The notes: generated by a model from the sequence alone, not told the origin. A DNA stretch of 64,000 bases from Akkermansia muciniphila (GCA_945861535.1 CAMAUZ010000012.1:11908-75907), one strand, 5' to 3'; positions 13,998 through 64,000 are shown, counted from the first letter of the stretch. Numbers and translations are program-made.

Positions 13998-13998
13998 G

Positions 13999-14472
13999 TC
14001 AGTTCCAGACCAGTTCTGGGGTTAAGGGGGTGGCGGACGGCGGGTCGGCGCGGCGGGCGAGTTCATCGAGGAGCTTCTGTTCCTCGCGGGTGCATTCGCG
14101 TTGGTAATTTTTCTGCTGCGTCTCGAGAAATTTCACGACGACTTCGCGGTTTTGCTGCGCGGTGATCAACTGGAGCAGCGCGAGGCGGGCGGCGGCTTCG
14201 GCGCGGGCGACGGCGTCGCGCTGGCGCTCGAGCCGCTCGCCGAGGCGCTGGCAATGGGCCTGGCGCTGGACGAGGTCGGCGACGGGGCAGGCCCGCGTCA
14301 TCAAGTGCCGCAGTTCGCCCCAGCCGGCGGCGAGATCGGTCTCGATGGCGGTCAGGTCGTCGAGCGCCTGTTGCTGGAGCTGAAGCCGGCGCGCGTAGAA
14401 TTCGAGGGCGGCGCGTTCCTCGCGTTCGCGGACGGTGAGGAGGGCCTGAAGGGTAAAGCGGAAGTGTTTCAT
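13999..14472 (-). CDS. fliJ: Flagellar export chaperone-escort protein FliJ
   Basis: 157-aa coiled-coil ORF MKHFRFTLQALLTVREREERAALEFYARRLQ... directly after fliI. Confidence 0.7.
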   Translation of the reverse strand: MKHFRFTLQALLTVREREERAALEFYARRLQLQQQALDDLTAIETDLAAGWGELRHLMTRACPVADLVQRQAHCQRLGERLERQRDAVARAEAAARLALLQLITAQQNREVVVKFLETQQKNYQRECTREEQKLLDELARRADPPSATPLTPELVWN

Positions 14473-14478
14473 ATCCGG

Positions 14479-26946: not shown

Positions 26947-27030
26947 GTGGGTAGGGCGCGTCTGTCCTCAGCGCGCCGGTGGGATGTCCGCACCTCCGCG
27001 GCGCGCTGAGGACAGACGCGCCCTACCCAC
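26947..27030. repeat. REP family R2, copy 2 (intergenic)
   Basis: gtgggtagggcgcgtctgtcctcagcgcgc ... gcgcgctgaggacagacgcgccctacccac, as at 3721-3804. Confidence 0.9.
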
Positions 27031-28859: not shown

Positions 28860-28918
28860 TCAGGAGTGCACAACGCACCTCAGTGTTCACCCTAGCGAGC
28901 TCCGGCATCCGATTCCGG

Positions 28919-30163: not shown

Positions 30164-30308
30164 AATTTTGCCATCGCCGTTAAGGAAAACCGGTGGGTCG
30201 CCGGTCACTCCCCGAATTCCGCGCCGAGCCGCAGCCCGGGAGACCTGGCCATCCGTTGGTCAATGAAGTTAGCATTGTCTTTATCCGCGAGTAGCTCGCC
30301 CGGTTGTC

Positions 30309-32294
30309 TCAAACCTTGACTCCAAATCGCTTCACCCATCTGCCAAAACAAATCATGCGCCAGCACGCAGTATCGTAAGGCAGTTCCCCGCGGATAATAC
30401 GTTCCAGATAGTCCGGCGCGCCAGAAGTGAGAATCCCCCGGCTCACTGCCACCGCCTCTGCCAGTTCAGCGCGAAAGGTGTCTGCATGAGTCTCCCGGGC
30501 CCAAATCTCCTCCGGAGTCACAAACGCCATCTTGTCACGTCGCAGCCGAACCGGCTCCGGCATTAGATCCCTCATCCCGGATCGGACGACGGCCTTGGAC
30601 CAACCGTCCCGGATTTTGTGCTGGTCTGGCAGACTCAGCGCAAACTCCGCCAGCCGGTAATCCAGAAACGGTAGTCGGGCCTCGATGGCGTGCGCCATGG
30701 AGTTGCGATCCTCCCAATGCAAAAGCTTCTGCAAGTGCTGACCGGTCATCATTTCGAGCGATAACTCCCGCGCGTTTTGGAAACGCTCAAACCGGCTCGC
30801 CAGCCGGCCGGGATTCTCCGCGTTCAGACGCCGCGGATGCAGCCAACCCGGCAATCTCGATCTTCGCCGATGCGCCCGGAAGGCGCTTTGCACCGGAAGT
30901 GGTGTCCAAGCGTCCCGGAGTGCCCGCAACCTGCCTTTGCCACCGCCAGCTTCGCGGAAGGCCGCACGCCACTTGCCAGTCCGAACCAAGTTCGCCAGGA
31001 AGGGACGGCGGAAAGACTGATAGCCATAGAACAGTTCGTCAGCCCCCTGCCCGTCTAACATCACTTTAACTCCCTTCGCCGCCGCCGCCGCAAATACCGT
31101 CCACTGGGCGTAGATGCTTGTGGAGCCGAAAGGCTCATCCTGGTGCCAGATCAATTCATCCAGAGCGGCGAACAGTCCGGCGGCGGACGGAAACACATGA
31201 CTCGCTTGGGCACCCACCATTGCCACTACTTTTTCGGAGTACTCTCGCTCATCGAAGCGCGGAAGTTCAGAGCATGCCGTGAAGGTTTTCTGAGGGATCA
31301 CCTCACCCTGGCCGATCAGTTGCTCGCGGACGGTGCAAACAATGGCCGAAGAATCCAAGCCCCCAGACAGACAGGAAGCGATCGGGGCATCCGACCGCAG
31401 CCGCAAGGCTACGGCATCGCGAAACAATTCCAGGAACCGGGCCGCCGCCGCGTCAAAGTCGCCGTCAAAGCAGGCAGGCGGGAGGGCATACCACCGCCGG
31501 ACCTTAAAGGCGGCCGATCTTTCGGCGTCGGCCGCACCCAACCATCGCCGACAATCGAGAATCGCATAGGTGCCCGGTTCGAGCTGCTGTACCCCCGCAA
31601 ACATGGTTTCGGAACTGTGATCCTGAAGACCATGAAGAAGGAAGTCCTGGACCGCCTGTTCGTTGGCCCGCGCCTCCCAGTCGGGCACGGCGGTGAACGC
31701 CTTGATTTCGGAGGCGAAAGCGAAAGTTGCCTGAGCCATGCGATAGTAGAGCGGCTTGACCCCAAACCGATCACGCGCCAAGAACAGTTCCTGTTTCTCC
31801 GCGTCGTAGATAGCCAGCGCCCACATCCCGTTAAATCGGTCAAGGCACGCGGCTCCCCAGCGCGAATAGGCGGCGAGGATTACTTCGGTATCACTGTGGG
31901 ATAGGAACGTGGAACCCGCCGCCTCGAGTTCTGCTCGTAGCTCCCGATAGTTATAGACCTCGCCGTTGTAAACGATCCAATACCGACCGGCATGACTCAT
32001 AGGCTGATGGCCCAGGGGAGAGAGATCCACAATGGACAGCCGCCGATGAGCCAGAGCTATGCGGATCGCACCGCCTTCGGCGGCTGGCCCGACCATCCCG
32101 GCCGGGCGCCACGGGGAATCAGTTGCCCATACCGCGCTCGCTGTGTCGCGCCCCCCCAGCGAAACGGGTCCACCCGGTCCTATGGACAGGTAGCCTTCGT
32201 CGTCCGGCCCCCGGTGCCGCATCAGTCGGTTCATTCCCGAGATGACATCCAGTGTCTCAAGCTTCGCAGAGATCAATCCGGCAATCGCACACAT
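30309..32294 (-). CDS. Asparagine synthase (glutamine-hydrolysing)-family amidotransferase
   Basis: MCAIAGLI (Ntn Cys2), LSIVDLSPLGHQPM, SGGLDSS PP-loop; 661 aa. Confidence 0.9.
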   Translation of the reverse strand: MCAIAGLISAKLETLDVISGMNRLMRHRGPDDEGYLSIGPGGPVSLGGRDTASAVWATDSPWRPAGMVGPAAEGGAIRIALAHRRLSIVDLSPLGHQPMSHAGRYWIVYNGEVYNYRELRAELEAAGSTFLSHSDTEVILAAYSRWGAACLDRFNGMWALAIYDAEKQELFLARDRFGVKPLYYRMAQATFAFASEIKAFTAVPDWEARANEQAVQDFLLHGLQDHSSETMFAGVQQLEPGTYAILDCRRWLGAADAERSAAFKVRRWYALPPACFDGDFDAAAARFLELFRDAVALRLRSDAPIASCLSGGLDSSAIVCTVREQLIGQGEVIPQKTFTACSELPRFDEREYSEKVVAMVGAQASHVFPSAAGLFAALDELIWHQDEPFGSTSIYAQWTVFAAAAAKGVKVMLDGQGADELFYGYQSFRRPFLANLVRTGKWRAAFREAGGGKGRLRALRDAWTPLPVQSAFRAHRRRSRLPGWLHPRRLNAENPGRLASRFERFQNARELSLEMMTGQHLQKLLHWEDRNSMAHAIEARLPFLDYRLAEFALSLPDQHKIRDGWSKAVVRSGMRDLMPEPVRLRRDKMAFVTPEEIWARETHADTFRAELAEAVAVSRGILTSGAPDYLERIIRGELPYDTACWRMICFGRWVKRFGVKV

Positions 32295-32582
32295 GTAATT
32301 AGTTCTACCGGCGCCTATCTAACTTCAAAGACCTATTTCGCCACTAGCTCTGATCTGCCATAAACTACCATCCCTCACCCCGCCTCGGGTCATCAGTCCG
32401 TCCTCCCGGAGTAACCTGGGTGATGAGATTCACCACAGCGCAACTCGGATGGCAAAAGGCTGACAGGTGCCAAACACGGCGTAAAGGATTTCCCCGGGGA
32501 CTCATGCGGTGCGTCCCGTGGAAGCTGGGTGACCCGTCGTTGGCCGGACTTGAGCGAATGGCCCGACCCCGAAAGGGCTGGG

Positions 32583-33962
32583 CTACGAGCCGGCGGCAAA
32601 CTGCACCATCAGGCTTTCGAGCTGCGGCTTATCCTGTAGCTGCAGGCTGGAGGTGCCCCCGAGTTTCAATAACGCCGCCACCTGTTGCCGGACCCTTGCC
32701 TCGCTCATCCCGTAACCGTGCAAGTAAGTAGTCTTTTTTGGGTCACACTTCCACGCCTCCGGGCACTCCGTCGTCAGCACTTCAATCATTCGTTGTGCCA
32801 CCGCCTGGTGGTTCCAGACCGTAGTCACAAACTCCCGTGCCCGGTGCCCTAACTTGATCCGGTATTCGTGATCGACCACCAAGGTTTGAATGGCCTCGGC
32901 GATCCGGTCAGGATGGCACACCTCGGAGGGCGGACGAAACTCCCGAGGTATCTCCCTGGCGAACAGTTCGGCCGCATAACTGCCCACCACGGCAGGCTTG
33001 CCCCATCCCGCCGCCTCCGCGGCCAGTCCCGCCATGGGGGTGTCCGAAAAAACCTGGTCCACTACCAGATCACATTGGCGCAGGGCATCCTGCACCACCC
33101 GGTTCGGCTGGTTGATTATTTCCGTGTAATCCAAAGCCAATCCCTTGGCGCGCAACTGGGCAATGGCGGCCCGAATTCGTTCGGTTCCCTTGGATTCGGG
33201 ATGCGACGGACAATGAAGTATCCGCATTGCGCGCCCGGAATCAGGGGGCGTTCCGGCCGCGGGATTGCCGCTGCCGATCACCGGGAATCCGAGGGCAAAA
33301 AAGGACAGAAACTCCCGCCGGTGCAGTTGGGCCGAGTAAGGGTTGGCGACAATCAAGTCGGAGTGGGCCTCAATCGTCGCGAGTTCCTGCTGTTGCCGCC
33401 GCGTCAAGCTGATGCATTCCGCCGGGGAGACATTGTGCTCCTGGCGCAGACACGAGCCATCCATATAGGGCGGCCGGGAATCGCTGCCCATGAAGATGCA
33501 AACCACCCGTTTGCCGCGGCGCCGCAACCAAGCCAGGTCCCCGAACGATTTGGAAAAGGTACTCTTGTAACCGAAAATGAAAACGTCGTGGTGCCGCGCC
33601 GCCCAGCGCAACAGGCGCCACCGCAACAGCTTTTCCCGCGTGCTGGCCGCCAACCGGCGAAGCCCTAGGAAACCCGGCTGCTGCCGCGCCCGCCGGGCGG
33701 CGCGAATCGCCTGCACATAGGGAACCTGCTCGTCGCACCCGTATCCAAAGGGATGCTCGGTCAGGCAGGCATAGGAACACCGGACCCCGTACGAGCGGAG
33801 TCCCTGCCACAGGCCGTTATAGTAGCCGGCGGTTTCCGAGAGTCCGATAAAGATGCGCGGATGTGTCGGCGCACCCGCGAGGGGCGGTGGGGGCTGGGGG
33901 TCACAGTCAGGCATTGGCGGCGGGGTAGGTTGGGTTTTCATCGCACTCGAAGCTTGCTCCAA
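32583..33962 (-). CDS. Hypothetical protein, possibly a GT-B-type glycosyltransferase
   Basis: 459-aa ORF in the glycan cluster. The C-terminal half (ILHCPSHPESKGTERI...DLVVDQVF..) resembles a GT1/4 C-domain. TTG 33962 or ATG 33940 start. Confidence 0.4.
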   Translation of the reverse strand: MEQASSAMKTQPTPPPMPDCDPQPPPPLAGAPTHPRIFIGLSETAGYYNGLWQGLRSYGVRCSYACLTEHPFGYGCDEQVPYVQAIRAARRARQQPGFLGLRRLAASTREKLLRWRLLRWAARHHDVFIFGYKSTFSKSFGDLAWLRRRGKRVVCIFMGSDSRPPYMDGSCLRQEHNVSPAECISLTRRQQQELATIEAHSDLIVANPYSAQLHRREFLSFFALGFPVIGSGNPAAGTPPDSGRAMRILHCPSHPESKGTERIRAAIAQLRAKGLALDYTEIINQPNRVVQDALRQCDLVVDQVFSDTPMAGLAAEAAGWGKPAVVGSYAAELFAREIPREFRPPSEVCHPDRIAEAIQTLVVDHEYRIKLGHRAREFVTTVWNHQAVAQRMIEVLTTECPEAWKCDPKKTTYLHGYGMSEARVRQQVAALLKLGGTSSLQLQDKPQLESLMVQFAAGS

Positions 33963-34273
33963 GAAAACCGCAGTTGAGACGAGGCACCGAAGACACGAAA
34001 CACGAAAATTGGCTGAGCGTGAGTTTTCCGGCCCCGAAAAGACTTCCCCCCGCGTGGTGAAGCAGGAGCTTGCGGTAACGCGTTGGATTCTCGTGTTTTT
34101 CGGGGTCGCAAGTGCTTTTTCTGGGTCGATGTTTCGGAAGGCAGCCGTGCGCCATCAGCGCGCCGTGACTTCCCCAAGTTGCGGGCCGGCTGCGGCAGCA
34201 TACCCGCCTGCGCCATGTTCCTCGCAAACCCGGTGCCCGAAGAGCCTGCGCGGGACCGGCTGCCGGAGTTTGT

Positions 34274-53300: not shown

Positions 53301-55671
53301 CGGCAAGATCGTCCGCGACCTCCCGCTGCCCAAGGCCGGCAATCCCACCGGCGGCGGCGCGCTCGGCAACGCGCTCGCCGCCAACACGCGCGGCGATCTC
53401 TTCGCCCTCTCCGCCGGCAAGCTCGTGAAAGTGGACCTCGCGAACGGCCAGCATCAGGTGCTCGCCACCGACCTCGGCAAACCCACCGCGCTCGCCTGCG
53501 ACGCCGCGGGCAACTGCTTCGTCTTCGATGCCGCCAAGGACCGGAAGAACATCCGCGTCTATGATCGCTCCGGAAAATTCCTCCGCGAAATCGGCGAACC
53601 CGGCGGCTACCAGCGCGGCCCGTGGAATCCGAATCGCATGGAAAACATCACCGCCCTCGCCGTGGACGCCCGCGGGCAAGTCTGGGCCGTCGATTGGAAT
53701 TACTGGCCCAAGCGCGTGAGCCTCTGGAGCGCCGACGGAAAATTTCAGAAGGAATTTCTCGGCCCCACGGAATACGGCGGCGCGGGCCAGCTTGATCCCG
53801 GCGACAAACGCCGGCTCTTTTACGGCCCGCTCGAATTCGAGCTCGACTGGGCCACCGGCAAATCGCGCCTGAAAAACCTGCTCTCGCTCGACGGCCATGG
53901 CGCGAGCGATTCGCCCATCTACGTCGGCAAGCAGCTCTACCTCGTGAACACGCGCCCCGGCGGCCACGGCCCGTCGCAGAACTGCGGCGTCGTTTACCGC
54001 CACGACGGCGACCGCGCCAAACTCGTCGCCGCCGTCGGTATCGCCGGCCAGTTCAAGCCGCTGCTCGACCCGCGCCTCGTGAAAGCCTTCGGCGGCAAAG
54101 TGCTCATGGATTACCTCTGCGCCTGGAGCGATTTGAACGGCGACGAACAAGTGCAGCCCGAGGAAGTCCAGCTCTGGCCCAAACCCAAGCAGGCCCGCGT
54201 CGTCTTCGATTCCCAGCTCGGCGTGCAGATGGGCACGATTGGTTTTCGCGTGAAGGAAATGCGCGCCGACGGCGTGCCCGTTTATCAGCGCGCCGACCTC
54301 CCCGGCCTTTGGGACGGCGTCGCGTTGCGCCTCGACAACGGCAACTTTTATCACTTCGAGGACGAATCCGCGCAGCGCAACGCCTGCGCCGTGCAGCGCC
54401 CCGACGGCACCGTGCTCTGGACCTACCAGACCGAAGGCGCGGGCGTCCACGCGCTCACCCGCGCCAAGCCCTGGCACCCGGCGCAGATCGTCTGCCAGTT
54501 CGGATTCGCCGGCCACGCCACCGCGCACGCCGGCGACCTCGGCGAATTCCTCGTCTTCAACTCCAACGTTGGCATCTGGGACATCATCACCGCAGACGGC
54601 CTCTTCGCCGGGCAAATCTTCCGCGACATCCGCGACCCCAAGGCGCTGCCGTGGAGCGGCACCAACAACGCCCGCGGGATGCGCATGGACGACATCACAC
54701 CCGGCCAGGAACATTTTCAGGGCTACTTCACCCGCACCGCCGACAACAAATATTACGCCGTCGCCGGCCACAACCACGCCAGCGTCGTCGAAGTCGCCGG
54801 CCTCGACCGCTTCAAACGTTTCCGCGGCGAACTCACCATCGGCGCGCCCGACCTCGCCGCCACGCAGACGTGGGAACGCAATCGCGAAGCCCGCGTCATC
54901 TACGCCCGCTCGCCCGTCCTCGACGCCTACCGCATGTCGCCGCCGAAGCTCGACGGCAAACTCAGCGACTGGGGCGCTGCCACTGCCGAGCTGGACCGCG
55001 ACGCGAAATTCCGCATCGGCTACGACGACCAAAACCTCTACCTCGCCTACGAAGTCAACCGCCGCGGCCCTCTGAAAAACCAAGGCCAGCAATGGGATCG
55101 CCTCTTCAAAACCGGCGCGAGCGTGGACCTCCAGATCGCCGCCGACCCCGCCGCGCCCGCCGACCGCAAAGCCCCCGCGCCCGGCGACCAGCGCCTCCTC
55201 CTCACCTTCACCGGCAAACAACCCGCCGCCATCCTCTACCAGGCCGTCGTCCCCGGCACGCCGCCCGACAAAGCCTGGCAAGTCGTCAGCCCCGTCCACT
55301 CCGTCACCTTCGACCGCGTGACCAAACTCGAATCCGCGCAACTCGCCGTCAGCGACAACGACAACGGCTACACCCTCGAAGCCGCCATCCCCCTCGCCGC
55401 CCTCGGCCTGAAAATCACCCCCGGCCTCCGCCTCAAACTCGACTGGGGCATCCTCATCAGTGGCCCCGACGGCACCGAAGTCCTGCGTCGCGAATATTGG
55501 TCCAACAAGGCCACCCACATCACCGCCGACGCCCCCAGCGAAGCCGAGCTCCACCCCGAACTCTGGGGCCACATCCGCTTCCACGCCGAACCCGCCGCCA
55601 CCCACCTCGACCCCACCGCCAAAAAAGGCAAAGACAAAGGCGTGGATGAGGTGCTGAACGATTTGAAATAA
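50371..55671 (+). CDS. Giant secreted multidomain protein (1766 aa): discoidin-like x2, FlgD-Ig-like, NHL/beta-propeller-like, CBM9/DOMON-like C-terminus
   Basis: ATG 50371 gives the signal peptide MIRTLSLPLSVTLSLLLLVALAPARA. Segments GKVTLVVDRPDGTRVRNLIANTPQPAGKNTVAWDLKDEAGNYVSPGNYKW (FlgD-Ig-like), ALACDAAGNCFVFDA..IRVYDRSGKFL..ALAVDARGQVWAVD (NHL-like), and LDGKLSDWGAA...NLYLAYEV...GYTLEAAIPL (CBM9-like). Domain names are by-eye guesses. Confidence 0.7.
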   Translation: MIRTLSLPLSVTLSLLLLVALAPARAAVLDPAITTAALDLPACRVLHADGAEPADPAAIRELLGLDGSNAPAPARRGAASRKPTSSLQYLLVFKQPVALGTVLGSVGELRVLKPAAPLPPEPARADDWLAIEVQPSQSAPRFAPLPPGTQTRALLVSAPVPRDSRQSPFLRLLAPRLANHTPAAVANADTEHTATSQFSPPYTHDAGHVTRGHGEWVNAGKDNQGFITRPPVTELQPAWFVLSWPDARRVNGVLLQENFSAFELQIFHGPPGINAAAATEQEWKTLRQFKQTQDGPRRWLTFDPVSTRALRLLITKTGEGPIARLAGFHVITDLGDQPAPAVAKPTPTEPPLQLTYELAQAGKVTLVVDRPDGTRVRNLIANTPQPAGKNTVAWDLKDEAGNYVSPGNYKWKAITHPPLELRYEMTAYPNISSYFPERAAWLTGASGSGGWLADHTPPHSACAAGDRVFLGAPVAESGVSLIECDLEGRKHWGHHSFEGFTGSWMLATDGKTVFNMASADNFAKAGMDKKTEAIWAVDIETKKVRTVAMLQPTAERKRGLQGFAAHDNQIFLAIHATDNWLNNAAGAVDIDLLNCLPAYGIPRKPRAANEQVPDPRTDFLRLLRLKDTPPGQGGNHGLTWLESTKNPDRRQHIVIAFTKPVSIGSLVFPPPPDEEKVQFQLSVLKPTAPYPPRVNERADWQPVPLTDKSAWAVVALPAGTSTRALRMTFTKGGTDATDDLLADVEDKKGAPSLDLADVNAKKPKRNLADADGDLWMRRIEGMKMLNRRFENLFPAASVRVNSGKVAPDGSWDAQRTEPLSPAEPAIYALEWKQPQTVRGLALKEIDGAVTEVDVFTGPIGAPVDIAATAGWEQVATYHQALRHYYQPDPLHNSNARYLDGYVDFGREVSTRAVRLRVVKQWDTKAHYPSGVRQDQGGQTLDLKRCRVYGVAPLKYLGGEPPVDTLVTERLEILDAATGKIVRDLPLPKAGNPTGGGALGNALAANTRGDLFALSAGKLVKVDLANGQHQVLATDLGKPTALACDAAGNCFVFDAAKDRKNIRVYDRSGKFLREIGEPGGYQRGPWNPNRMENITALAVDARGQVWAVDWNYWPKRVSLWSADGKFQKEFLGPTEYGGAGQLDPGDKRRLFYGPLEFELDWATGKSRLKNLLSLDGHGASDSPIYVGKQLYLVNTRPGGHGPSQNCGVVYRHDGDRAKLVAAVGIAGQFKPLLDPRLVKAFGGKVLMDYLCAWSDLNGDEQVQPEEVQLWPKPKQARVVFDSQLGVQMGTIGFRVKEMRADGVPVYQRADLPGLWDGVALRLDNGNFYHFEDESAQRNACAVQRPDGTVLWTYQTEGAGVHALTRAKPWHPAQIVCQFGFAGHATAHAGDLGEFLVFNSNVGIWDIITADGLFAGQIFRDIRDPKALPWSGTNNARGMRMDDITPGQEHFQGYFTRTADNKYYAVAGHNHASVVEVAGLDRFKRFRGELTIGAPDLAATQTWERNREARVIYARSPVLDAYRMSPPKLDGKLSDWGAATAELDRDAKFRIGYDDQNLYLAYEVNRRGPLKNQGQQWDRLFKTGASVDLQIAADPAAPADRKAPAPGDQRLLLTFTGKQPAAILYQAVVPGTPPDKAWQVVSPVHSVTFDRVTKLESAQLAVSDNDNGYTLEAAIPLAALGLKITPGLRLKLDWGILISGPDGTEVLRREYWSNKATHITADAPSEAELHPELWGHIRFHAEPAATHLDPTAKKGKDKGVDEVLNDLK

Positions 55672-55791
55672 TGTTTGACCGAACTCCGACGGTTTGAGAT
55701 TCGCCGTCGATACGCCTGACCTAAGGAGTGGTCATTGAGCCGAACTTCCGCGGCAACTGAACTCAACGCGTCTGGTCCACGCTGATTCGTA

Positions 55792-55962
55792 ATGGCCAAC
55801 GCACCAAGGAGCAGCCATTCTTCCGGGATGAAAAACACTGTAGATGTCCACCTCTGCGTTGCGAAAATGGGCGTGGGAGGTGAGATCACCTTCAACCGCA
55901 TCATGGAATCGGAGTTAATCAAAGCGGGAGAAAGAGGTGCGCTGATCGACCGGAACGCGTGA
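55792..55962 (+). CDS. Possible 56-aa ORF at the left end of the low-GC islet
   Basis: MANAPRSSHSSGMKNTVDVHLCVAKMGVGGEITFNRIMESELIKAGERGALIDRNA. Its TGA overlaps a GTG (55959) in frame with the ATPase gene (GTGA). No recognisable motif. Confidence 0.15.
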   Translation: MANAPRSSHSSGMKNTVDVHLCVAKMGVGGEITFNRIMESELIKAGERGALIDRNA

Positions 55963-55988
55963 GTCGGCCAACGACAGGAACCACTTAT

Positions 55989-57293
55989 ATGAATCCGAAA
56001 CTTGAAGAAGTGTTTGGCGTCCGGGCGGAGCCTGTGTTGAGCTACATTGAACGTCCTACAGTGGACGACCGATTTGTTGCCGGGCTAAGAAGCGACAAGC
56101 AGGTTGTTGTCTATGGGGCATCAAAGCAGGGAAAGACTTCTCTCGTAGCTAAGCACCTGCCATACGACAAGAATGTGGTGGTCCGGGTTGCACCCAAAAC
56201 CGAGGTTATCGACATCTACGCAAGCGTTCTCAGACAGCTTGGCGTGAAGATCATCTCCGAAACCGGCGAATCAACGCAGCATGAATCAAGTCTTTCGATC
56301 GGAGCGAAGGTAAAGGCCCTGATCCCTTTGTTCGGTGGCGGGGAAGCTAGCACAAACGGACAGGTTAAGGCGGGCGTGGGAGATACTACCAAATACGAAG
56401 AAGTCCGTTTCAACCTGAACTTGCCACAAGATGTTTCCGAACTTCTCCAAAAGACAGCCGCTGGAAAAGCAATCATCCTTGAGAATTTCCACTACCTTGA
56501 TGACGAACGGCAGAAACAGTTTGCTTTTGACTTGAGGACTTTCCAAGAGCTTGGGGTGCGATTCGTCATCCTCGGCGTATGGCGCGAAAAGAACCGTCTC
56601 GCGCAGTTTAACGGAGATCTCCTCGACAGAATTGCTGAAGTGCCGGTTGAACCATGGGAAAAGCAAGATTTTCATAAAGTGGCAGGCGAAGGTGGGCGTC
56701 ACCTGAAAGTTGAATTCGCCGATTACATCCTCAATTCTGCCATCGAGGCTTCGTTCAGCAGTATTGGGGTATTCCAAGAGCTATTGAAAGAAACGTGTCT
56801 GGCCGCCGGCATTACCGAGGCACGGCCAACTGTAGTACGAATTGAGAATCAACATCATCTTGATGCTGCAGTGAAGAAAAAGGCCGACGACTATGCTTCT
56901 CGACATCAGCGCGCCCTCGAAGCCATAGCAGCGGGAAATCTTAGTACGAGTGGCAAAGATGGGCTTCAACCGCTATTCCTACCTCACTATCTTGTTAAGG
57001 TGCTTTTGTCCGGGGGTTGCGATGCTGTCGCTAACGGTATGAGGCGGGCGACCATCCAAGAACGCATTCAGGCGTTACACCATCGTTCATCTGACGTTCG
57101 AGCCTCGGACATGAGCAATCTCCTTTACAACTTAGCAACGCTGCAGAGCAACAAGGGGATTTCTCCGCCTATTTTCGATTACGACAAGACGACCAAGCAA
57201 CTTCAAGTAGTCGACTCGACGTTTTACTTTTTCCTCAAGAACGCTGACTTGTCTCAAATCTCGGCGGAAATTCCCAACCCAATTGAGGGCTAA
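55989..57293 (+). CDS. P-loop NTPase (Arch_ATPase/ORC-like AAA clade) with an alpha-helical C-terminal domain
   Basis: Walker A VVVYGASKQGKTSL (nt 56115-56138), Walker B AIILENFHYLDD, VILGVW. ATG 55989 (MNPKLEEVFGV...), with an alternative GTG at 55959. Low GC. Confidence 0.75.
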   Translation: MNPKLEEVFGVRAEPVLSYIERPTVDDRFVAGLRSDKQVVVYGASKQGKTSLVAKHLPYDKNVVVRVAPKTEVIDIYASVLRQLGVKIISETGESTQHESSLSIGAKVKALIPLFGGGEASTNGQVKAGVGDTTKYEEVRFNLNLPQDVSELLQKTAAGKAIILENFHYLDDERQKQFAFDLRTFQELGVRFVILGVWREKNRLAQFNGDLLDRIAEVPVEPWEKQDFHKVAGEGGRHLKVEFADYILNSAIEASFSSIGVFQELLKETCLAAGITEARPTVVRIENQHHLDAAVKKKADDYASRHQRALEAIAAGNLSTSGKDGLQPLFLPHYLVKVLLSGGCDAVANGMRRATIQERIQALHHRSSDVRASDMSNLLYNLATLQSNKGISPPIFDYDKTTKQLQVVDSTFYFFLKNADLSQISAEIPNPIEG

Positions 57294-57442
57294 CGTTGTG
57301 ATGAGAACCTTCCATTGTCAAAGGCTGTACTGCTTGCCCAAGGCGCAGAGCAATTCCGACTTATGGTTCCGGTGCGGGCAATTCAGATCAGAGTTTATCG
57401 AGCGCGGTTGAGCTAGGATCTTAGATTGAAGATAAGGACGAT

Positions 57443-58096
57443 ATGTCGAAACCACTCACCGTCGAAGACCTTCAAAAGGAGGCTTCCAGCTTTGCAAAGG
57501 CGCAATCGAATCACGCGGAACCACGCCTGTTTGGAGTCACGGACGGCAAAGCCGTCGGCACTTACCTAGAACACAAGTTCCAAACGCATCTTCAAAGTTG
57601 CTACACCTACGGCCGGGGCAACTCCGCCAAAGGAATTGATTTCCCCGAGTTGGGTGTGGACATGAAGGTCACCAGCATCCGGCAGCCGCAGTCGTCGTGC
57701 CCCTTCAAGAGCGCCCGCCAGAAGATTTACGGACTCGGCTATTCGCTGCTTGTGTTTGTTTACGACAAGCGGGACGACGAGAAAGCGCGCACCGGTCGGC
57801 TGGAAATCCTACACACCATCTTCGTCGAGAAGGAGCGAACGGCGGACTATCAAACGACCTCGGGTCTGCTCCGATTGATCGAGAACAAGGCCAACCGAGA
57901 CGACATTCTGGCCTTTTTCCAGGAACGGATGCTGCCGGTGGACGAGGTGGAAGCCGAAACTCTCGCCGATGAAGTTCTCCGCAGCCCGCCGGAAGTTGGC
58001 TACCTGACCGTCTCCAACGCGCTCCAGTGGCGACTGCAGTATGGTCGTGTCATCGAACAGGCGGGGAAAGTTGGCGGCATCATCCGACTCGTATGA
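57443..58096 (+). CDS. PD-(D/E)XK-type restriction endonuclease-like protein
   Basis: 217 aa; GIDFPELGVDMKVTS supplies D...D-x-K. The stop overlaps the methyltransferase ATG (ATGA at 58093-58096). Confidence 0.6.
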   Translation: MSKPLTVEDLQKEASSFAKAQSNHAEPRLFGVTDGKAVGTYLEHKFQTHLQSCYTYGRGNSAKGIDFPELGVDMKVTSIRQPQSSCPFKSARQKIYGLGYSLLVFVYDKRDDEKARTGRLEILHTIFVEKERTADYQTTSGLLRLIENKANRDDILAFFQERMLPVDEVEAETLADEVLRSPPEVGYLTVSNALQWRLQYGRVIEQAGKVGGIIRLV

Positions 58097-59628
58097 GGAC
58101 GCGCGCCAAAATTGAGTTCGGGGATTTCCAGACGCCTTTGGAGTTGGCACGCGAGGTTTGCGCTTTGCTGGTTCGCCAGACGGGCGAGGTGGATTCAGTG
58201 GTTGAGCCCACCTGCGGGGTGGGTGCATTTATCGTCGCTGCTGCCGAGGCGTTTCCGAAAGCCCGGCTGCAAGGCTGGGACATTAATTGTGACTATGTTG
58301 AACAGACGGTGAATGCCCTGGCCGAAGCGGGAGCAGGCTCGCGGGCGACCATCGGCCAGCAAGACTTCTTTTCCCATAATTGGGAGAAGGAACTGTCTGG
58401 AATTCCGGGACGCCTGCTCATCCTCGGCAATCTGCCGTGGGTGACCAACGCCACCGTCTCGGGGATGAACGGCGGAAACCTCCCGGCGAAGGAGAATTTC
58501 CAAGGGTTCAGAGGCATTGAGGCCCTGACTGGAAAATCCAACTTCGACATTTCCGAATGGATGCTCATCCAGCTTGTGAAAGCTCTCCGTGGCCGGACCG
58601 CCACCATCGCCATGCTTTGCAAAACGGGCACGGCGCGGAAGCTGTTGCGTTTTGGCTGGCAGAACGATGGTCGCATTGCCGCAGCGTCGCTGCATCGCAT
58701 CGATGCGAAAAGGCATTTCGGTGCAGCGGTTGACGCCTGTTTGTTGGTGGCCTCAACCGGAGAGTCCGGTCCCGTCGAAGCGAAGGTTTTCCAGGACCTT
58801 ACCGCCAGACGAGCATCCACGACACTTGGTCTGGCCGGGCAGGACCTGGTTTACGACATCCGCACGTATCGCCGGCTCAAGCATCTCGAAGGACTCTGCC
58901 CCTATCAGTGGCGTTCCGGCGTGAAACACGACTGCGCCGCGATCATGGAGCTACGCCGAATCGACGGCAAAGGACTCCAGAACAAGCTGGGCGAACTCGT
59001 CAGCATCGAGCCGGACTACTTGTTTCCGCTCTTGAAATGCTCCGACCTCGCCAACGGACGCCTTGAACCGGAGCGATTCATGGTGGTACCGCAGCGCCGA
59101 GTCGGAGACGACACGGCCGTTATCGCAAGAAAAGCTCCCCGCACCTGGCGCTATCTGGATTCTCACCGTTCCCTCTTTGAAGCGCGAAAGAGTTCCATTT
59201 ACAACAGTCGAATGCCCTTCGCTCTCTTTGGCATTGGTGACTACACGTTTGCTCCGTGGAAAGTAGCCGTGTCCGGCCTGCACCGTACCGCGCGCTTCTG
59301 CCTGATTGGGCCGGTCAACGGACAGCCCGTCTTGTTCGATGACACCTGCTACTTGCTTTCGTTTGAAGACGAGGCGGAGGCCCGGATAGTGACTGCGATT
59401 CTCAATTCGCCGCCATGTCAGGAATTCGTATCGTCGCTCGTCTTTACCGACTCAAAACGCCCGATCACCGTCGAACTACTCCAGCGGCTAAACCTTCATG
59501 CCATTGCTGTAGCAGCCGGAATGGCCGCTGAGTGGTCCGATGCTAGGGGTCAACGGGTTCGCTACCACGAATCGGATGCAGCGCTCCAGGCCGAGTTCGT
59601 GATGGAACGACCATTGAAACCAGTTTGA
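58093..59628 (+). CDS. Gamma-class N6-adenine DNA methyltransferase (Eco57I/TaqI-like, with TaqI_C-like specificity domain)
   Basis: FGDFQTPLELAREV, motif I VVEPTCGVGAFIV (58201-58230), motif IV LILGNLPW (N-L-P-W variant). C-terminal ...LLSFEDEAEARIVTAILNSPPCQEFV. Confidence 0.8.
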   Translation: MRTRAKIEFGDFQTPLELAREVCALLVRQTGEVDSVVEPTCGVGAFIVAAAEAFPKARLQGWDINCDYVEQTVNALAEAGAGSRATIGQQDFFSHNWEKELSGIPGRLLILGNLPWVTNATVSGMNGGNLPAKENFQGFRGIEALTGKSNFDISEWMLIQLVKALRGRTATIAMLCKTGTARKLLRFGWQNDGRIAAASLHRIDAKRHFGAAVDACLLVASTGESGPVEAKVFQDLTARRASTTLGLAGQDLVYDIRTYRRLKHLEGLCPYQWRSGVKHDCAAIMELRRIDGKGLQNKLGELVSIEPDYLFPLLKCSDLANGRLEPERFMVVPQRRVGDDTAVIARKAPRTWRYLDSHRSLFEARKSSIYNSRMPFALFGIGDYTFAPWKVAVSGLHRTARFCLIGPVNGQPVLFDDTCYLLSFEDEAEARIVTAILNSPPCQEFVSSLVFTDSKRPITVELLQRLNLHAIAVAAGMAAEWSDARGQRVRYHESDAALQAEFVMERPLKPV

Positions 59629-59861
59629 ACTCCGCCTTGGGAAAGACCGGCAAGTTGCTGCGCCGGACGAAGGGCGAAGCGGTGTTGGCGTTCCCGTTGC
59701 GCCCGGCGTTGGAGCGGTTGAGTTCCGCGCCGATACTCAAAGCCATCATCACCGCCCTGGCTAAATTGAACTGCGACCGTTGGGCCATGAGTCGGTTCTC
59801 GGGACAGGTGGGGCTCGCTTCCCAGGCGCAGGCCGAGCAGAGTGCGGAGGCGAAGCGATGA
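59625..59861 (+). CDS. Possible 78-aa ORF between the two methyltransferase genes
   Basis: TTG 59625 overlaps the gamma-MTase TGA, and its own TGA overlaps the next ATG (ATGA 59858-59861). No recognisable domain. Confidence 0.2.
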   Translation: MNSALGKTGKLLRRTKGEAVLAFPLRPALERLSSAPILKAIITALAKLNCDRWAMSRFSGQVGLASQAQAEQSAEAKR

Positions 59862-59968
59862 GCACGAACCTGGAACAAACGTTGAGTTACCAAATTACGG
59901 ATGTGGAGAACTTGCTCGGTATCCTGCGGGATCTGGCGGCAGAAAGGAGGGCGCAGCATGTCAAGTGA
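59858..59968 (+). CDS. Possible 36-aa leader ORF overlapping the beta-methyltransferase start
   Basis: MSTNLEQTLSYQITDVENLLGILRDLAAERRAQHVK. GGAGG lies 9 nt upstream. The ORF ends 11 nt inside the next gene. Confidence 0.2.
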   Translation: MSTNLEQTLSYQITDVENLLGILRDLAAERRAQHVK

Positions 59969-61166
59969 AGTCCGTCATGGTGATTGTCTGGAGGTCGTGC
60001 GCGGTCTGGCCGCCGAGACGGTGGACTTGGTCTATGTTGACCCGCCTTTCTTCACGCAGAAGACACATTCGCTCGGCACCCGTGATCGGGCCACGACGTT
60101 TCAATTCAGCGACGAGTGGAAGTCCCGTGCCGAATACCTCGAGTTCCTACGTGTACGCTTGAAAGAATTCCAGCGTGTCCTGAAGAGCACCGGCTCACTC
60201 TTCTTCCAGTGTGACACGAATGCTTCACACCACATCCGCTGCCTGCTGGATGAGGTGTTTGGCGAAGCGATGTTCCGATCGGAGATCATCTGGCACTACC
60301 GTCGCTGGTCGAATTCTCAGCGCAATCCATTGCCGTCACACCAGACCATCTTCTTTTACAGCAAAACCGACTCCTACCAATACCATCAGCTCTTCGATGA
60401 CTACTCTCCCGCAACGAACGTGGACCAGATTCTCCAACGTCGGCAGCGCGACCACCACGGCAAATCCGTTTATGCCCGCGACGGGAGCGGCGATGTCGTC
60501 CACGATGGCTACAAAAGGGGCGTCCCGATTGCCGACGTTTGGGATATTCCGCTCCTAAATCCGAAGGCGAAGGAGCGCGTTGGCTACCCGACACAAAAGC
60601 CAATTCTGTTGCTGGAGCGCATCATCGGGTTGGTTACATCACCCGGCGACCTGATCCTTGATCCCTTCTCTGGTAGCGGCACGACCCTAGTTGCTGCTGA
60701 GTTGTTAGGTCGTGACTCGCTGGGCATCGACATTTCCGTCGAAGCGGTAGAGTTGGCACGCCAACGATTGGCGCAACCGGTAAGAACGTCTTCGGAACTA
60801 ATGCGAAAAGGCCGGGATTCCTACCTTCAGTCCGACGATGAATCGCTGGCCATTCTCTGCGGCCTGCCGGTGGTTCCCGTTCAACGCAATCGCGGCATCG
60901 ACGCCATTCTCAACACCCAGCCGGGCGAGAACCCGATTCTCATTCGAGTACAGCGTCGCGGAGAAAGTCTTTCCGACGCGGCGGAGTTGCTCCACCACGC
61001 CGGTCGCAGCAAGCAACCGGCGACACTGGTATTGATCGTAACCGATTCCCAACAACCGGCTGGCTTGTTCAATCTGCTCCCTCCAGATGTGTTGGTGGTT
61101 AATTCGACCTCGACCGAGTTGCTGGAGCGGCTGGCCGATCGGGGAATCGGAATAGTCCGCCGCTGA
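59958..61166 (+). CDS. Beta-class N4C/N6A DNA methyltransferase fused to a C-terminal Mrr-like PD-(D/E)XK domain
   Basis: AAGGAGG lies 7 nt upstream of ATG 59958. Motif IV VYVDPPF (60039-60050) precedes motif I DPFSGSGTT (about 60658-60684; FSGSGTT = 60664-60684). The C-terminal about 120 aa are RGIDAIL...PILIRVQRRGESLSDAAELLHHAGRS..LVLIVTDS...VLVVNSTSTELLERL. Confidence 0.8.
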   Translation: MSSEVRHGDCLEVVRGLAAETVDLVYVDPPFFTQKTHSLGTRDRATTFQFSDEWKSRAEYLEFLRVRLKEFQRVLKSTGSLFFQCDTNASHHIRCLLDEVFGEAMFRSEIIWHYRRWSNSQRNPLPSHQTIFFYSKTDSYQYHQLFDDYSPATNVDQILQRRQRDHHGKSVYARDGSGDVVHDGYKRGVPIADVWDIPLLNPKAKERVGYPTQKPILLLERIIGLVTSPGDLILDPFSGSGTTLVAAELLGRDSLGIDISVEAVELARQRLAQPVRTSSELMRKGRDSYLQSDDESLAILCGLPVVPVQRNRGIDAILNTQPGENPILIRVQRRGESLSDAAELLHHAGRSKQPATLVLIVTDSQQPAGLFNLLPPDVLVVNSTSTELLERLADRGIGIVRR

Positions 61167-61325
61167 TTCACACCGACAGGGTTTCAAACGCCAGTCGCAT
61201 GATCGTGGTCGTGGGCGGCGTGCTGCGGTTGGTGCTCGGCACACAGCCGCGCTTCAGACGTTCCGGAGCCGCCCGCGTGTTCGCTGTGTTCTTTTTTTCC
61301 GGCCTCTGCTTTAGTCGCCGTCGCC

Positions 61326-62702
61326 ATGTCTGGGAAACCCATGCTGTTGATTGTGGATGACGAGAAGCCGACGCGCGACGGGCTGCGCGCGGCGCTCGAG
61401 GAGCATTATGATGTCTATGTGGCGGAGGACGCGGTGACGGCGATGGGGCTGCTGGAGCGCGAGAATTTCGCGGTGTTGCTGACGGACCTGCGGCTGCCCA
61501 AGGAGGACGGCATGAAGCTGATCGCCCGCGCCAAATCGCTGACGCAGCCGCCGGTGTGCATTTTGATGACGGCGTATGGCTCGGAGGATGTGGCGGTGGA
61601 GGCGATGAAAAATGGGGCGGATGATTACATTTCGAAGGGCCGGTTGCAGATCGATGAGCTGGAGTTGCGGATCGCGCGGGCGGTGCGGCGGCAGGCGTTG
61701 GAAGAGGAGAATCAATCGCTGCATCAGCGACTGGACCGGAAGTTTCGGCTGGAAAGCGTGATCGGAGAATCGGCGGCGATGCGGGAGGTGCTCGAGATCG
61801 TGCAGCAGGTCGCGCCGACCCGGGCGACGGTTTTAATCACGGGCGAGAGCGGCACGGGGAAGGAATTGATCGCGAAGGGGATTCACCAGAGCAGTCCGCG
61901 GGCGCGGTTTCCGATGGTGACGGTGCATTGCGCGGCGCTGGCGCCCACGCTGCTCGAGAGCGAACTGTTCGGGCATGAGAAGGGGGCGTTCACGGGCGCG
62001 CACGAGCGGCGCATCGGGCGCTTCGAGCAGGCGCAGGGCGGAACGTTGTTCCTCGATGAGATCGGCGAGATCGACGCGACGATCCAGGTGAAGCTGCTGC
62101 GGTTTCTGGGCGAGCGGACGTTCGAGCGCGTCGGCTCGAACAAGACGCTGACGGCGGATGTGCGGCTCGTGGCGGCGACGAACAAGAATCTCGAGGCGTT
62201 GGTGAAGGAGGGGAAGTTTCGCGAGGATTTATTTTTTCGGCTGCGCGTGGTGGAGATTCATCTGCCGCCATTGCGGCAGCGGCCCGAGGATATTTCGCTG
62301 CTGACGCGGCGGTTTCTCGAGGAGTTCGCGGCGGAGAATCAGAAGCCGGTGTTCGGCCTCGCCCCCGAGGCGGTGGAGTTGTTGCAGCAATATCGGTGGC
62401 CGGGAAATGTCCGCGAGCTGCGCACGGCGATCGAGCACGCGGTGGTGTTGTGTCGCGGGAGCGTGATCGGGGCGCGAGATTTGCCGGCCAACGTCCGCAG
62501 CGGGCAAGCGCCGCAGTTGGAGCCGACGGCGACGGAGACCATCGCGCACGGCGGGCTGACGGTGAAGGAGGCCGAGCGGGAACTGGTGGTGCAGGCGTTG
62601 AAGGAGTGCAACGGGAACCGTTCGCTGGCAGCGAAGAAGCTGGGGATGAGCCGCCGCACGCTGCATCGCAAGTTGCACCTGTATCATCTGGAGGGCTTTT
62701 AA
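61326..62702 (+). CDS. Sigma-54-dependent response regulator (NtrC/AtoC family enhancer-binding protein)
   Basis: Receiver LLIVDDEKPTRDGL...LLTDLRLPKEDG. AAA+ VLITGESGTGKELIA, GAFTGA (ELFGHEKGAFTGA). C-terminal Fis-type HTH NRSLAAKKLGMSRRTLHRKL. Confidence 0.95.
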   Translation: MSGKPMLLIVDDEKPTRDGLRAALEEHYDVYVAEDAVTAMGLLERENFAVLLTDLRLPKEDGMKLIARAKSLTQPPVCILMTAYGSEDVAVEAMKNGADDYISKGRLQIDELELRIARAVRRQALEEENQSLHQRLDRKFRLESVIGESAAMREVLEIVQQVAPTRATVLITGESGTGKELIAKGIHQSSPRARFPMVTVHCAALAPTLLESELFGHEKGAFTGAHERRIGRFEQAQGGTLFLDEIGEIDATIQVKLLRFLGERTFERVGSNKTLTADVRLVAATNKNLEALVKEGKFREDLFFRLRVVEIHLPPLRQRPEDISLLTRRFLEEFAAENQKPVFGLAPEAVELLQQYRWPGNVRELRTAIEHAVVLCRGSVIGARDLPANVRSGQAPQLEPTATETIAHGGLTVKEAERELVVQALKECNGNRSLAAKKLGMSRRTLHRKLHLYHLEGF

Positions 62703-62720
62703 GTGTCACGGCTGCAGACG

Positions 62721-64000
62721 ATGATTCACACGCTCGAGGAGGGCGCGGGCGTGGCTGTGATCAAGGGCCTGCTGCTCGTGCTCGTGGTCGCGGGGCTGGC
62801 GATCACGTACAACCTGCGCGAGTTCCGCAATTTCTCGAATCCCGAGGCGATGGATCAGGCGCAGCTCGCGCGCAACGTGGCGGAGGGCCGCGGATTTGTG
62901 ACGGGGTTCGTCCGGCCGCTGAGCCTGCACCAGGTCGCGCGGCAAAAGGGGACGGGCGATTTCGGATTGGGTGCGCCGCATCCGGATGTGGCGAACGCGC
63001 CGTTGTACCCGCTGGCGCTGGCGGGGTTGATGAAGGCGGCGCCGTTCGAGTTCGGGATTCGGAATCCGGCGGAGTTTCGGAGTTATCAGCCCGAGCTGCT
63101 GATCGCGTGGTTTAATCAGGGGCTGCTGCTGCTGGCGTTGGGGCTGACGTATCGGCTGGGGAAACGCTTGTTTGACGGGCTGGTGGCGTGGACGGCGGTG
63201 GCGCTGCTGGTGGGCACGGAGTTGTTCTGGCGGTTCAGCATCTCGGGGTTGTCCACGATGCTGGTGCTCGTGCTGGTGTTGGCGCTGGCGAACACGCTGG
63301 CGTCGCTCGAGAGCGGCGCGCGCGCGCAGCCGGCGCAGCCCGGGCAGCCCCCGCAGCCGCCGCGGGGCGTGGCGGAGGTGTTATTCCTGGCGCTGCTCGC
63401 GGGCGCGCTGGTGGCGCTGGCGGGACTGACGCGGTATTCGCTGGCGCTGCTGATCGTGCCGGTCGTGGTGTTTCTGGCGTTGAGCCTGACGGGCGGACGG
63501 CGCGTCGCCGCGATCGTGGTGGCGCTCGTGGCGTTTGCGGGCGTGCTCACGCCGTGGTTGGTGCGCAATTATCAACTCAGCGGCGTGCCCTTTGGCGTGG
63601 CGGGCTTCGCCGCGTCCGAGGAGACGGAGCGTTTTCCCGGACAAAAACTCCCGCGCTCGCTGCACCCGCGCGATGCGGCGACGCCGGCGGATTTGGACAA
63701 AGTGGCCGTCGGCGAATACTTCGACAAACTCGGCGTGAACCTCGGGCGGGTGATTCAGGACGATCTGCCGAAGCTCGGCGGCAACTGGGTGACGGGGCTG
63801 TTCCTCGCCGCGCTGCTCGTGCGTTTCCGCAATCCGGGGTTGGTGCGGATGCGCGGCTTTCTGGTGGTGGCGCTGCTGGTGTTGGCGGCGGCGCAGGCGC
63901 TGGGGCGGACGCACCTCAGCACGACGTCGCCCGAGGTCAACGGGGAGAATCTGCTCGTCGCGCTGGCACCGCTGGTCTTTGTGTTTGGCGCGGGATTTTT
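62721..64000 (+). CDS. Polytopic membrane protein, probably a GT-C glycosyltransferase (ArnT/PMT-like); 3' end beyond the right edge
   Basis: Absent from the ORF track (no stop). I translated the frame from ATG 62721 to 64000 with no stop: MIHTLEEGAGVAVIKGLLLVLVVAGLAITYNLREFRNFSNPEAMDQAQLARNVAEGRGFVTG... It has many hydrophobic helices. Confidence 0.6.
   Translation, partial: MIHTLEEGAGVAVIKGLLLVLVVAGLAITYNLREFRNFSNPEAMDQAQLARNVAEGRGFVTGFVRPLSLHQVARQKGTGDFGLGAPHPDVANAPLYPLALAGLMKAAPFEFGIRNPAEFRSYQPELLIAWFNQGLLLLALGLTYRLGKRLFDGLVAWTAVALLVGTELFWRFSISGLSTMLVLVLVLALANTLASLESGARAQPAQPGQPPQPPRGVAEVLFLALLAGALVALAGLTRYSLALLIVPVVVFLALSLTGGRRVAAIVVALVAFAGVLTPWLVRNYQLSGVPFGVAGFAASEETERFPGQKLPRSLHPRDAATPADLDKVAVGEYFDKLGVNLGRVIQDDLPKLGGNWVTGLFLAALLVRFRNPGLVRMRGFLVVALLVLAAAQALGRTHLSTTSPEVNGENLLVALAPLVFVFGAGF

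Follow-up and report, generated by a model that had tools for sequence, protein, structure and literature searches.

We analysed a window of 64,000 nucleotides (nt) from an assembly named as Akkermansia muciniphila (GCA_945861535.1, CAMAUZ010000012.1:11908-75907) and focused on an islet at positions 55672-61325, which lies between the gene for a giant secreted protein and the gene for a sigma-54 regulator (all window coordinates are counted from its first nucleotide). This islet is very probably the current cargo of a defence hotspot between these two genes in an uncultured member of the Verrucomicrobiota, made up of three functionally independent modules and exchanged by homologous recombination. 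The modules are a stand-alone ATPase, an NspV-family restriction-modification pair, and a beta-class DNA methyltransferase that has been parted from its ApaLI-family endonuclease. Housekeeping proteins encoded in the window fall into the same clusters, at ≥90% identity, as proteins named "Verrucomicrobiota bacterium". An initial annotation, made from the window's sequence, had proposed horizontally acquired defence DNA, which our results support. It had also described a single restriction-modification-like cassette with a layout that could not be classified; on comparison with plasmids, sister strains, and other ATPase loci, the parts proved to be separable.

Variable cargo in one genomic slot

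We compared the islet with contigs that encode exactly the same sigma-54 regulator, and then with relatives whose regulator is at least 90% identical. The window's own arrangement (variant A) was found in at least 3 independent assemblies and a second one (variant B) in at least 4, including GCA_947444175.1. In variant B, here represented by contig L005, the giant gene is followed by a 57-aa open reading frame (ORF), a 414-aa DUF262 protein that is NsnA-like in PADLOC (E = 1.7e-55), a 215-aa RE_ApaLI endonuclease, the same 402-aa methyltransferase as in the window, and the regulator. Homology between the two variants ends exactly at the stop codon of the giant gene (55671) and resumes at 59897. 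It likewise ends at 55671 in L172, where the giant gene stop is followed by a 259-aa gene, the Septu genes PtuA (a fragment) and PtuB, RE_ApaLI, the methyltransferase, and the regulator. The PtuA gene of L172 (1541-2119 of that contig) encodes 192 aa and covers only the C-terminal half of the PtuA profiles (255-431 of 446), so this Septu cargo may itself be decaying. A further candidate variant with a disrupted ATPase (L002, L007, L012) was rejected as a difference in gene calling only, as its DNA is 100% identical to the window over 54000-63000.

Among the other relatives, L165 lacks the ApaLI-family pair and has, immediately before the regulator, a TIR protein and PD-Lambda-1. The regulator is preceded by rpsB, tsf, pyrH, and a 257-aa gene in L166 and L167, and by HEAT and DUF6807 genes in L170 and L175; there are no defence genes in the slot of L166, L170, and L175. 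Homology between the islet-free relatives and the window starts at 61204-61274. The initial annotation had suggested looking for an empty site between the flanking genes. Islet-free relatives do exist, but when metagenomes were scanned with the C-terminal end of the giant protein, no true empty site came up in which the giant gene directly adjoins the regulator gene; instead, orthologues of the giant gene (81-87% identity) had native genes with high GC at third codon positions (GC3) 12-56 nt downstream and no sigma-54 regulator. Judged from these loci, the 3′ end of the giant gene is a synteny breakpoint. Taken together, the differing cargos, the islet-free relatives, and the native genes that follow the giant-gene orthologues argue that the site is a hypervariable defence hotspot at this breakpoint. 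Within it, the ApaLI-family pair is an older layer, and change is fastest in the slot that separates this pair from the giant gene.

The end points of the exchange are visible in the alignment of the window with L005. Two stretches, 49831-53819 (3989 nt) and 60414-64000 (3587 nt), contain 0 mismatches, and the divergence between the sequences is confined to two arms and the non-homologous cargo between them. The left arm (53820-55671) has 92 mismatches in 1852 nt (5.0%) and the right arm (59897-60413) has 54 in 517 nt (10.4%). This pattern suggests that the cargo was exchanged as an allele through homologous recombination, with crossovers within the giant gene (near 53820) and the beta methyltransferase gene (near 60413), and that the imported DNA would have come from a lineage 5-10% divergent. 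Allelic replacement of this kind needs no mobility gene, tRNA, or repeat, and, as the initial annotation had observed, none is seen at the borders: we found no tRNA, no terminal direct or inverted repeats, and no integrase or transposase family in scans against Pfam, PADLOC, and NCBIfam. An Rfam search gave no match, and a scan for promoters and terminators gave nothing informative. The intergenic segments 55672-55988, 57294-57442, and 59629-59896 had no homologue in any of the loci compared, except for a 16-mer described below and the remnant of the ApaLI-family endonuclease gene.

The islet also stands out by composition. Its GC content is 55.9%, compared with 66.0% for positions 1-55671, and lies 4.3 standard deviations under the distribution of 5.65-kb windows elsewhere in the window (minimum 60.4%). 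The ATPase gene has 50.3% GC, the endonuclease gene 57.0%, the gamma methyltransferase gene 58.2%, and the beta methyltransferase gene 57.0%; GC3 is 0.53-0.70 in the islet genes and 0.85-0.86 in both flanking genes. The abrupt drop described in the initial annotation is therefore real and its borders were correctly placed, though the figures given (43-53% against 68-80%) overstate it, 60-nt lines from the islet having a median GC of 55% and those from the giant gene one of 68%. All ORFs are on the plus strand, as had been described, and the features are listed in Table 1. A second, milder GC dip lies in the middle of the window, at 28000-34000 (59-62%, compared with 65-67%).

Table 1. Features of the islet and of its left recombination arm, in window coordinates
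Feature	Position	Strand	Remarks
Left recombination arm, 3′ 1.85 kb of the giant secreted-protein gene	53820..55671	+	5.0% divergent from L005; no difference in the 3989 nt upstream
Left intergenic part of the cargo	55672..55988	+	44/56-aa ORF (55792/55828-55962) without family match; 16-mer GATTCGTAATGGCCAA at 55784-55799
Stand-alone 434-aa AAA+ ATPase, PDC-S59 candidate family	55989..57293	+	ORC/Cdc6- or Arch_ATPase-like fold; lowest GC of the islet
217-aa NspV-family Type IIP endonuclease (predicted)	57443..58096	+	Full length against the NCBIfam equivalog model
511-aa gamma-class DNA methyltransferase, NspV-family partner (predicted)	58093..59628	+	Start overlaps the endonuclease stop (ATGA)
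268-nt spacer, right end of the swapped-in cargo	59629..59896	+	Covers most of a 78-aa ORF (59625-59861) without homologue or family match
3′ remnant of the ApaLI-family endonuclease gene, last ~20 recognisable codons, ...LLGILRDLAAERRAQHVK*	59897..59968	+	Gene intact in L005 and L172
402-aa beta-class (N6_N4) methyltransferase, orphaned	59958..61166	+	First 455 nt (to 60413) in the right recombination arm, 10.4% divergent from L005
Right-border intergenic region	61167..61325	+	One copy (61218-61252) of a dispersed ~35-nt repeat

Several further observations concern the site and its surroundings. The left intergenic regions of variants A and B are otherwise unrelated but share an identical 16-mer, GATTCGTAATGGCCAA (L005 5908-5923), which lies 113 nt (A) and 67 nt (B) past the giant gene stop and spans the ATG of non-homologous small ORFs of 56 aa and 57 aa. 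The 16-mer has one copy in the window, compared with 0.02 expected occurrences, is absent from L172, and could be a shared regulatory or recombination signal. A dispersed GC-rich repeat of ~35 nt, GCGTGCTGCGGTTGGTGCTCGGCACACAGCCGCGC, with a GTGC...GCAC hairpin, is found at the right border of the islet and upstream of the FTHFS gene. Its copies are at 26992-27027, 47912-47946 (minus strand), and 61218-61252 (plus strand) in the window, at 10303-10338 and 10447-10480 in L175, and at 19206-19240 in L005. Relatives at 92-93% identity have the FTHFS region in inverted orientation and at another place, beside copies of this repeat, which thus marks synteny breakpoints. Downstream, L172 carries at 12051-15347, after a 1161-aa Laminin_G/Cadherin gene, a 1098-aa Type ISP/IIG restriction-methyltransferase fusion (ISP_coupler, N6_Mtase, Type_ISP_C; PADLOC E = 1e-211), where window-type contigs have a PSCyt1/PSCyt2/PSD1 gene; this position, which corresponds to a point past the end of the window, looks like a second variable defence site ~6 kb downstream. 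Also past the window end, at 19582-20746 in L004 and L005, the PSCyt gene and a DUF1501 gene enclose a DUF4926 gene together with a 252-aa HNH-domain gene, which could be a small toxin/nuclease or defence pair.

An NspV-family pair and an orphaned methyltransferase

The domain calls of the initial annotation were borne out: the islet encodes an ORC-like P-loop ATPase, a probable PD-(D/E)XK endonuclease, and gamma- and beta-class methyltransferases. The 217-aa endonuclease matches the NCBIfam equivalog NF052465 over its full length (positions 1-209 of 209) with a score of 348.6 bits (cutoff 290); further matches are to PADLOC REase_II (E = 5.5e-97) and to the Pfam family NspV (PF27258, precomputed). 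The motif GID66-F-P...D73-M-K75, with the family form GID-x-P...(D/E)-x-K, is kept in most of 18 diverse homologues. The NspV and ApaLI families have both been placed in the PD-(D/E)XK superfamily by Orlowski & Bujnicki (PMC2441816). A sequence search of the PDB with the endonuclease found no relative and was uninformative for the gamma methyltransferase and the ATPase as well.

The neighbouring 511-aa methyltransferase matches one PADLOC MTase_II model end to end (E = 1.1e-150). Its motif I (EPTCGVGAF) comes before its motif IV (NLPW), which assigns it to the gamma class, and its target-recognition domain is C-terminal. The overlap between the endonuclease stop and the methyltransferase start, which the initial annotation had pointed out, is located at 58093-58096. 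The same two genes, in the same order and with overlapping frames, occur on the Nostoc flagelliforme plasmid pNFSY05 (65% identity for the endonuclease, 42% for the methyltransferase) and on a 6.8-kb Aeromonas plasmid, and neither plasmid has the ATPase. Because it stands alone on these plasmids, the pair is predicted to be a self-sufficient, canonical Type IIP system. The endonuclease would cut unmethylated palindromic sites in incoming DNA, and the translationally coupled methyltransferase would protect the host.

NspV itself recognises TTCGAA, and going by the family name this is possibly the site of the predicted pair too. TTCGAA occurs 5 times in the window, compared with 13.1 expected, and 0 times in the islet; this mild depletion is a weak hint, as many other palindromes are depleted too. 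Across the whole window, the 6-bp palindromes strongly avoided relative to Markov expectation include CAGCTG (0 observed, 17.8 expected), GTCGAC (1, 20.1), GTGCAC (1, 8.6), GGGCCC (2, 14.8), and GAGCTC (5, 22.8). This avoidance suggests that several restriction-modification specificities have been at work in the lineage for a long time.

The beta-class methyltransferase has a different history. It matches PF01555 (E = 2.4e-55) and PADLOC MTase_II (E = 4.8e-156) over 388 of 399 profile positions, the C-terminal domain included, and carries the motifs DPPF and FSGSG. Its architecture of 400-403 aa is common to more than 120 clusters at ≥80% identity, among which the named ones are from Limisphaerales, Chthoniobacter, Verrucomicrobiota, and Chloroflexi. 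In sister strains with the identical sigma-54 regulator, an intact RE_ApaLI gene (PF09499, 215 aa in L005, E = 3.1e-91) overlaps this same methyltransferase gene; the intact RE_ApaLI of L172 has 208 aa. No intact RE_ApaLI gene is present in the window, where only ~20 codons are left. Of the two tiny overlapping ORFs that the initial annotation had listed, both are present, but one is this 3′ remnant: it ends in ...LLGILRDLAAERRAQHVK*, which corresponds to the C-terminus of the ApaLI-family endonuclease (...LLGILRDLAAERRAQHGQ*), and in all variants the methyltransferase overlaps the endonuclease stop by 11 nt. Given this shared C-terminus and the pairing seen in sister strains, the beta methyltransferase is best read as the cognate methylase of an ApaLI-family pair that has lost its endonuclease in the window.

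A truncated endonuclease gene beside an intact methylase gene implies that variant A was derived from an arrangement with a complete pair. The present cargo would have replaced a prior one, in an exchange that removed all but the last ~20 endonuclease codons. The methyltransferase would have had to outlast this exchange, because losing the methylase before the endonuclease is lethal; loss of the endonuclease with the methylase kept is the only viable order of decay in established restriction-modification biology. The beta methyltransferase shares 97% identity with the copy in L005 and 93% with that in L172, keeps all family-invariant residues, and has a ratio of nonsynonymous to synonymous polymorphism (pN/pS) of 0.15 against L005. 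Presumably it still methylates its site, and continued methylation would leave the cell immune to the intact endonuclease of sister strains. The sequence GTGCAC occurs once in the window, compared with 8.6 expected, a strong depletion that is only suggestive since other palindromes are depleted too.

The beta class assigned to this protein in the initial annotation stands, while the Mrr-like domain said to be fused to it was not confirmed. For residues 295-402, neither Mrr_cat nor any other Pfam nuclease family matched even at E ≤ 10, and PDB sequence matches covered only the methyltransferase core, up to residue ~278. The full-length structural model is poor, with a pLDDT score (local distance difference test, predicted) of 45, the alignment being too shallow. 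In this model residues 305-395 reach pLDDT 67-86 and form a beta-beta-beta-alpha-beta-alpha-beta-alpha unit, whose local Foldseek matches are mostly PD-(D/E)XK nucleases (the DdmD nuclease domain, HindIII, Ecl18kI, FokI, Hjc) and are weak (E = 0.006-0.4). A candidate motif, GID315...VQ332-R-R, lacks the lysine. A C-terminal domain of ~100 aa with a nuclease-like fold is thus plausible on the model and its catalytic competence doubtful; cutting in the sister strains is assigned to the separate RE_ApaLI endonuclease.

The ATPase and competing explanations

The most likely start of the ATPase, consistent with its family, is not the GTG at 55959 but the ATG at 55989 (434 aa). In PADLOC it matches PDC-S59 (E = 8e-74, 247 bits, profile positions 1-402 of 428), the sole family at E ≤ 0.1. 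No Arch_ATPase, Cdc6, or AAA family of Pfam was matched at gathering score; sub-threshold matches were to AAA_22 (19.8 bits against 27), AAA_16, and TniB (E = 0.016), and NCBIfam gave none. The Walker A motif GASKQGKT and the Walker B-like motif ILENFHYLD are invariant in the forms GxSKQGKT and ENFHYL. An AlphaFold model (pLDDT 81.5) shows an AAA+ core, a 40-residue disordered low-confidence insert (92-133), a lid, and a C-terminal helical region that closes in a beta-hairpin. The best global Foldseek matches were P. abyssi PABY2304 (2qen; query/target template modelling scores 0.50/0.60) and Orc1/Cdc6 2qby_A (0.45/0.52), both with E ~1e-5, followed by Orc1/Cdc6 1w5s and 2v1u and then by clamp-loader, RuvBL, and TnsC subunits.

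The family is large, with at least 1569 database clusters at E ≤ 1e-3, of which the best 120 are all 58-88% identical to the ATPase. A scan of species-representative genomes yielded 80 loci at 42-64% identity from Verrucomicrobiota, Acidobacteriota, Cyanobacteria, Proteobacteria, Firmicutes, Bacteroidota, Planctomycetota, Nitrospirota, and Bdellovibrionota, as well as from a Methanomassiliicoccales archaeon. In 73 of 75 loci the GC of the ATPase gene is under that of its flanks, by 10 points on average. Across the 80 genomes there is no recurrent partner: among 144 first neighbours every Pfam or PADLOC family is limited to 3-4 occurrences at most, and among 109 second neighbours to 2. The neighbours are mixed and include housekeeping genes, a few rve integrases (3/144), the MADS gene mad3 (4), AriA (3), GajA/Old (2), and LmuB (2), and the closest homologues with known context (71-78% identity) stand alone beside thiC and other housekeeping genes. 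This suggests that the ATPase works as a single gene without an obligatory partner. On a smaller scale some neighbours do recur: the ATPase adjoins the same 529-aa gene in 3 picocyanobacterial metagenome-assembled genomes (L046, L047, L048), with GC 18 points under the flanks, and thiC in 2 metagenome contigs (L013, L015), which points to lineage-specific stable insertions.

PDC-S59 belongs to a set of 145 candidates that were predicted via guilt-by-embedding and called untested; the loci in which it was first recognised, as an embedded gene, were of the restriction-modification, BREX, or DISARM kind (Payne et al., bioRxiv 10.1101/2024.01.29.577857). The name PDC-S59 was not met in the searched supplements of this preprint or in a full-text literature search, and PDC-S59 was not among the candidates tested in PMC12881386. 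Literature searches for it, and for a Cdc6-like defence ATPase that has been characterised, gave no experimental test of this family. As a lone ORC/Cdc6-like protein, the ATPase would act by itself as a nucleoside triphosphate-dependent sensor or blocker of invading or replicating DNA. We tentatively propose, as a possibility short of an even chance, that PDC-S59 truly defends against phages as a single gene and by a new mechanism: an ORC/Cdc6-like AAA+ protein without a nuclease or other recognisable effector would sense either invading or replicating DNA or a protein of phage replication, and would use ATP-driven oligomerisation to block its target. Members of the family are spread over nearly every bacterial phylum, at least one archaeon, plasmids, and prophages. 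The system may act in synergy with neighbouring restriction-modification systems.

The ATPase could alternatively have no part in immunity and serve the selfish or maintenance needs of mobile DNA, through ORC/Cdc6-, TniB/TnsC-, or IstB-like loading or target selection or as a replication or partition factor of a plasmid or prophage, and would then be hitch-hiking in the hotspot. We consider this unlikely. The fold matches to Orc1/Cdc6 and the TnsC filament would agree with it, as would the weak TniB match, the rve integrases among the immediate neighbours, and the homologues on 8 plasmids and 32 IMG/VR contigs, which lie beside genes for a CI-like repressor, an integrase, UmuD, and a Ren-like protein. 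However, no transposase, replication, or partition partner recurs beside the ATPase, which stands alone among housekeeping genes in several genomes and had no match in 50,697 sequenced phage genomes. In addition, its slot in sister strains is filled by recognised defence genes (NsnA-like, Septu, PD-Lambda-1), and GajA/Old, AriA, LmuB, and MADS genes are among its neighbours elsewhere. The beta methyltransferase, too, might be more than a passive relic, either as a regulatory (epigenetic) orphan or as a methylase recruited as second protection against the NspV-type endonuclease. The conservation of its invariant residues and its pN/pS would fit such a role, and its best solved relatives are orphan beta-class methylases such as CcrM. 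We nevertheless judge this improbable: in at least 2 other cargo variants the gene of this methyltransferase overlaps an ApaLI-family endonuclease gene that is intact, the remnant of that gene still adjoins it here, NspV-type pairs elsewhere do without a second methylase, and its small divergence from L005 makes the orphaning look recent. It is more improbable still that the islet is one integrated, novel, multi-component restriction-modification-like system in which the ATPase, both methyltransferases, and both nuclease-fold modules cooperate. The co-orientation and close spacing of all genes in one low-GC block are compatible with this, as is the embedding of PDC-S59 in larger defence loci by which it was discovered. 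Yet the NspV-type pair is found alone on plasmids, the beta methyltransferase is not part of the swapped segment and in sister strains has a different endonuclease partner, NspV-type endonuclease or methyltransferase genes occur in 0 of 85 ATPase loci, and the ATPase gene differs in GC and GC3 (50% and 0.53) from the pair (57-58% and 0.67-0.70). The puzzle of an unclassifiable architecture dissolves once sister strains are compared, which is a warning against taking co-linear defence genes for one system.

Several points weigh against our reading of the islet as recombined cargo of three independent modules. All comparison sequences are metagenome assemblies, and two alleles, A and B, cannot tell donor from recipient. 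The activity of every gene is predicted from its sequence alone, and the recognition sites are suggested by family names. Ongoing activity of the orphaned methyltransferase is inferred from its intact motifs and its pN/pS, a signal that was mostly built up before orphaning. Classical M.ApaLI is a C5 methylase, unlike the amino-methyltransferase of the ApaLI-family pair here, so that its site may differ. Finally, the defence role of PDC-S59 comes from guilt-by-embedding, and the ATPase has no recognisable effector domain.

Comparison with known systems

The locus is a well-documented example of a known phenomenon, all of its components belong to catalogued families, and its only open biology is the ATPase. 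That family is very widespread, highly conserved (42-88% identity across phyla), and consistently lower in GC than its flanks, and it offers a practical lead as a defence candidate. Like Orc1/Cdc6 and Arch_ATPase proteins (2qby, 1w5s, 2v1u, 2qen), the ATPase is modelled with an AAA+ core, a lid, and a C-terminal helical, possibly winged-helix-like region; unlike them, it has the 40-residue insert, shares only 12% identity, lacks a Pfam Arch_ATPase or Cdc6 match, and has no link to a replication origin. It resembles the PADLOC candidate PDC-S59 in its near end-to-end profile match, its occurrence as a single gene that is sometimes beside defence genes, and its presence in many phyla. The difference lies in its context, as it is found here beside a Type II pair and not embedded in a Type I restriction-modification, BREX, or DISARM locus.

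The putative NspV-type pair agrees with NspV-family Type IIP systems in the length of its endonuclease (217 aa against a 209-position model), its score above the curated cutoff, its GID...DxK motif, the order of endonuclease and methyltransferase genes with overlapping frames, and the 42% identity of its methyltransferase to plasmid homologues. The endonuclease is only 65% identical to the nearest annotated one, that of the Nostoc plasmid, so its specificity is putative, and motif IV of the gamma methyltransferase is NLPW rather than the usual NPPY/F/W. As for the ApaLI-family Type II pair of sister strains (PF09499 and PF01555), the methyltransferase is nearly the same protein and GTGCAC is avoided in the window, but the endonuclease gene has been cut down and the methyltransferase alone remains.

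In core-genome defence hotspots, alternative systems occupy one conserved site and are exchanged via homologous recombination in the flanks. The present site is like them in its conserved flanks, its at least 4 alternative cargos and empty states, its lack of mobility genes, and its tract ends inside flanking genes. It is unlike them in that the right crossover falls inside a defence gene, the shared methyltransferase gene, and that the exchange also destroyed the neighbouring endonuclease gene. It thereby provides a clean natural example of cassette turnover at a hotspot, with exact recombination end points and an orphan methyltransferase born by truncation of its endonuclease.

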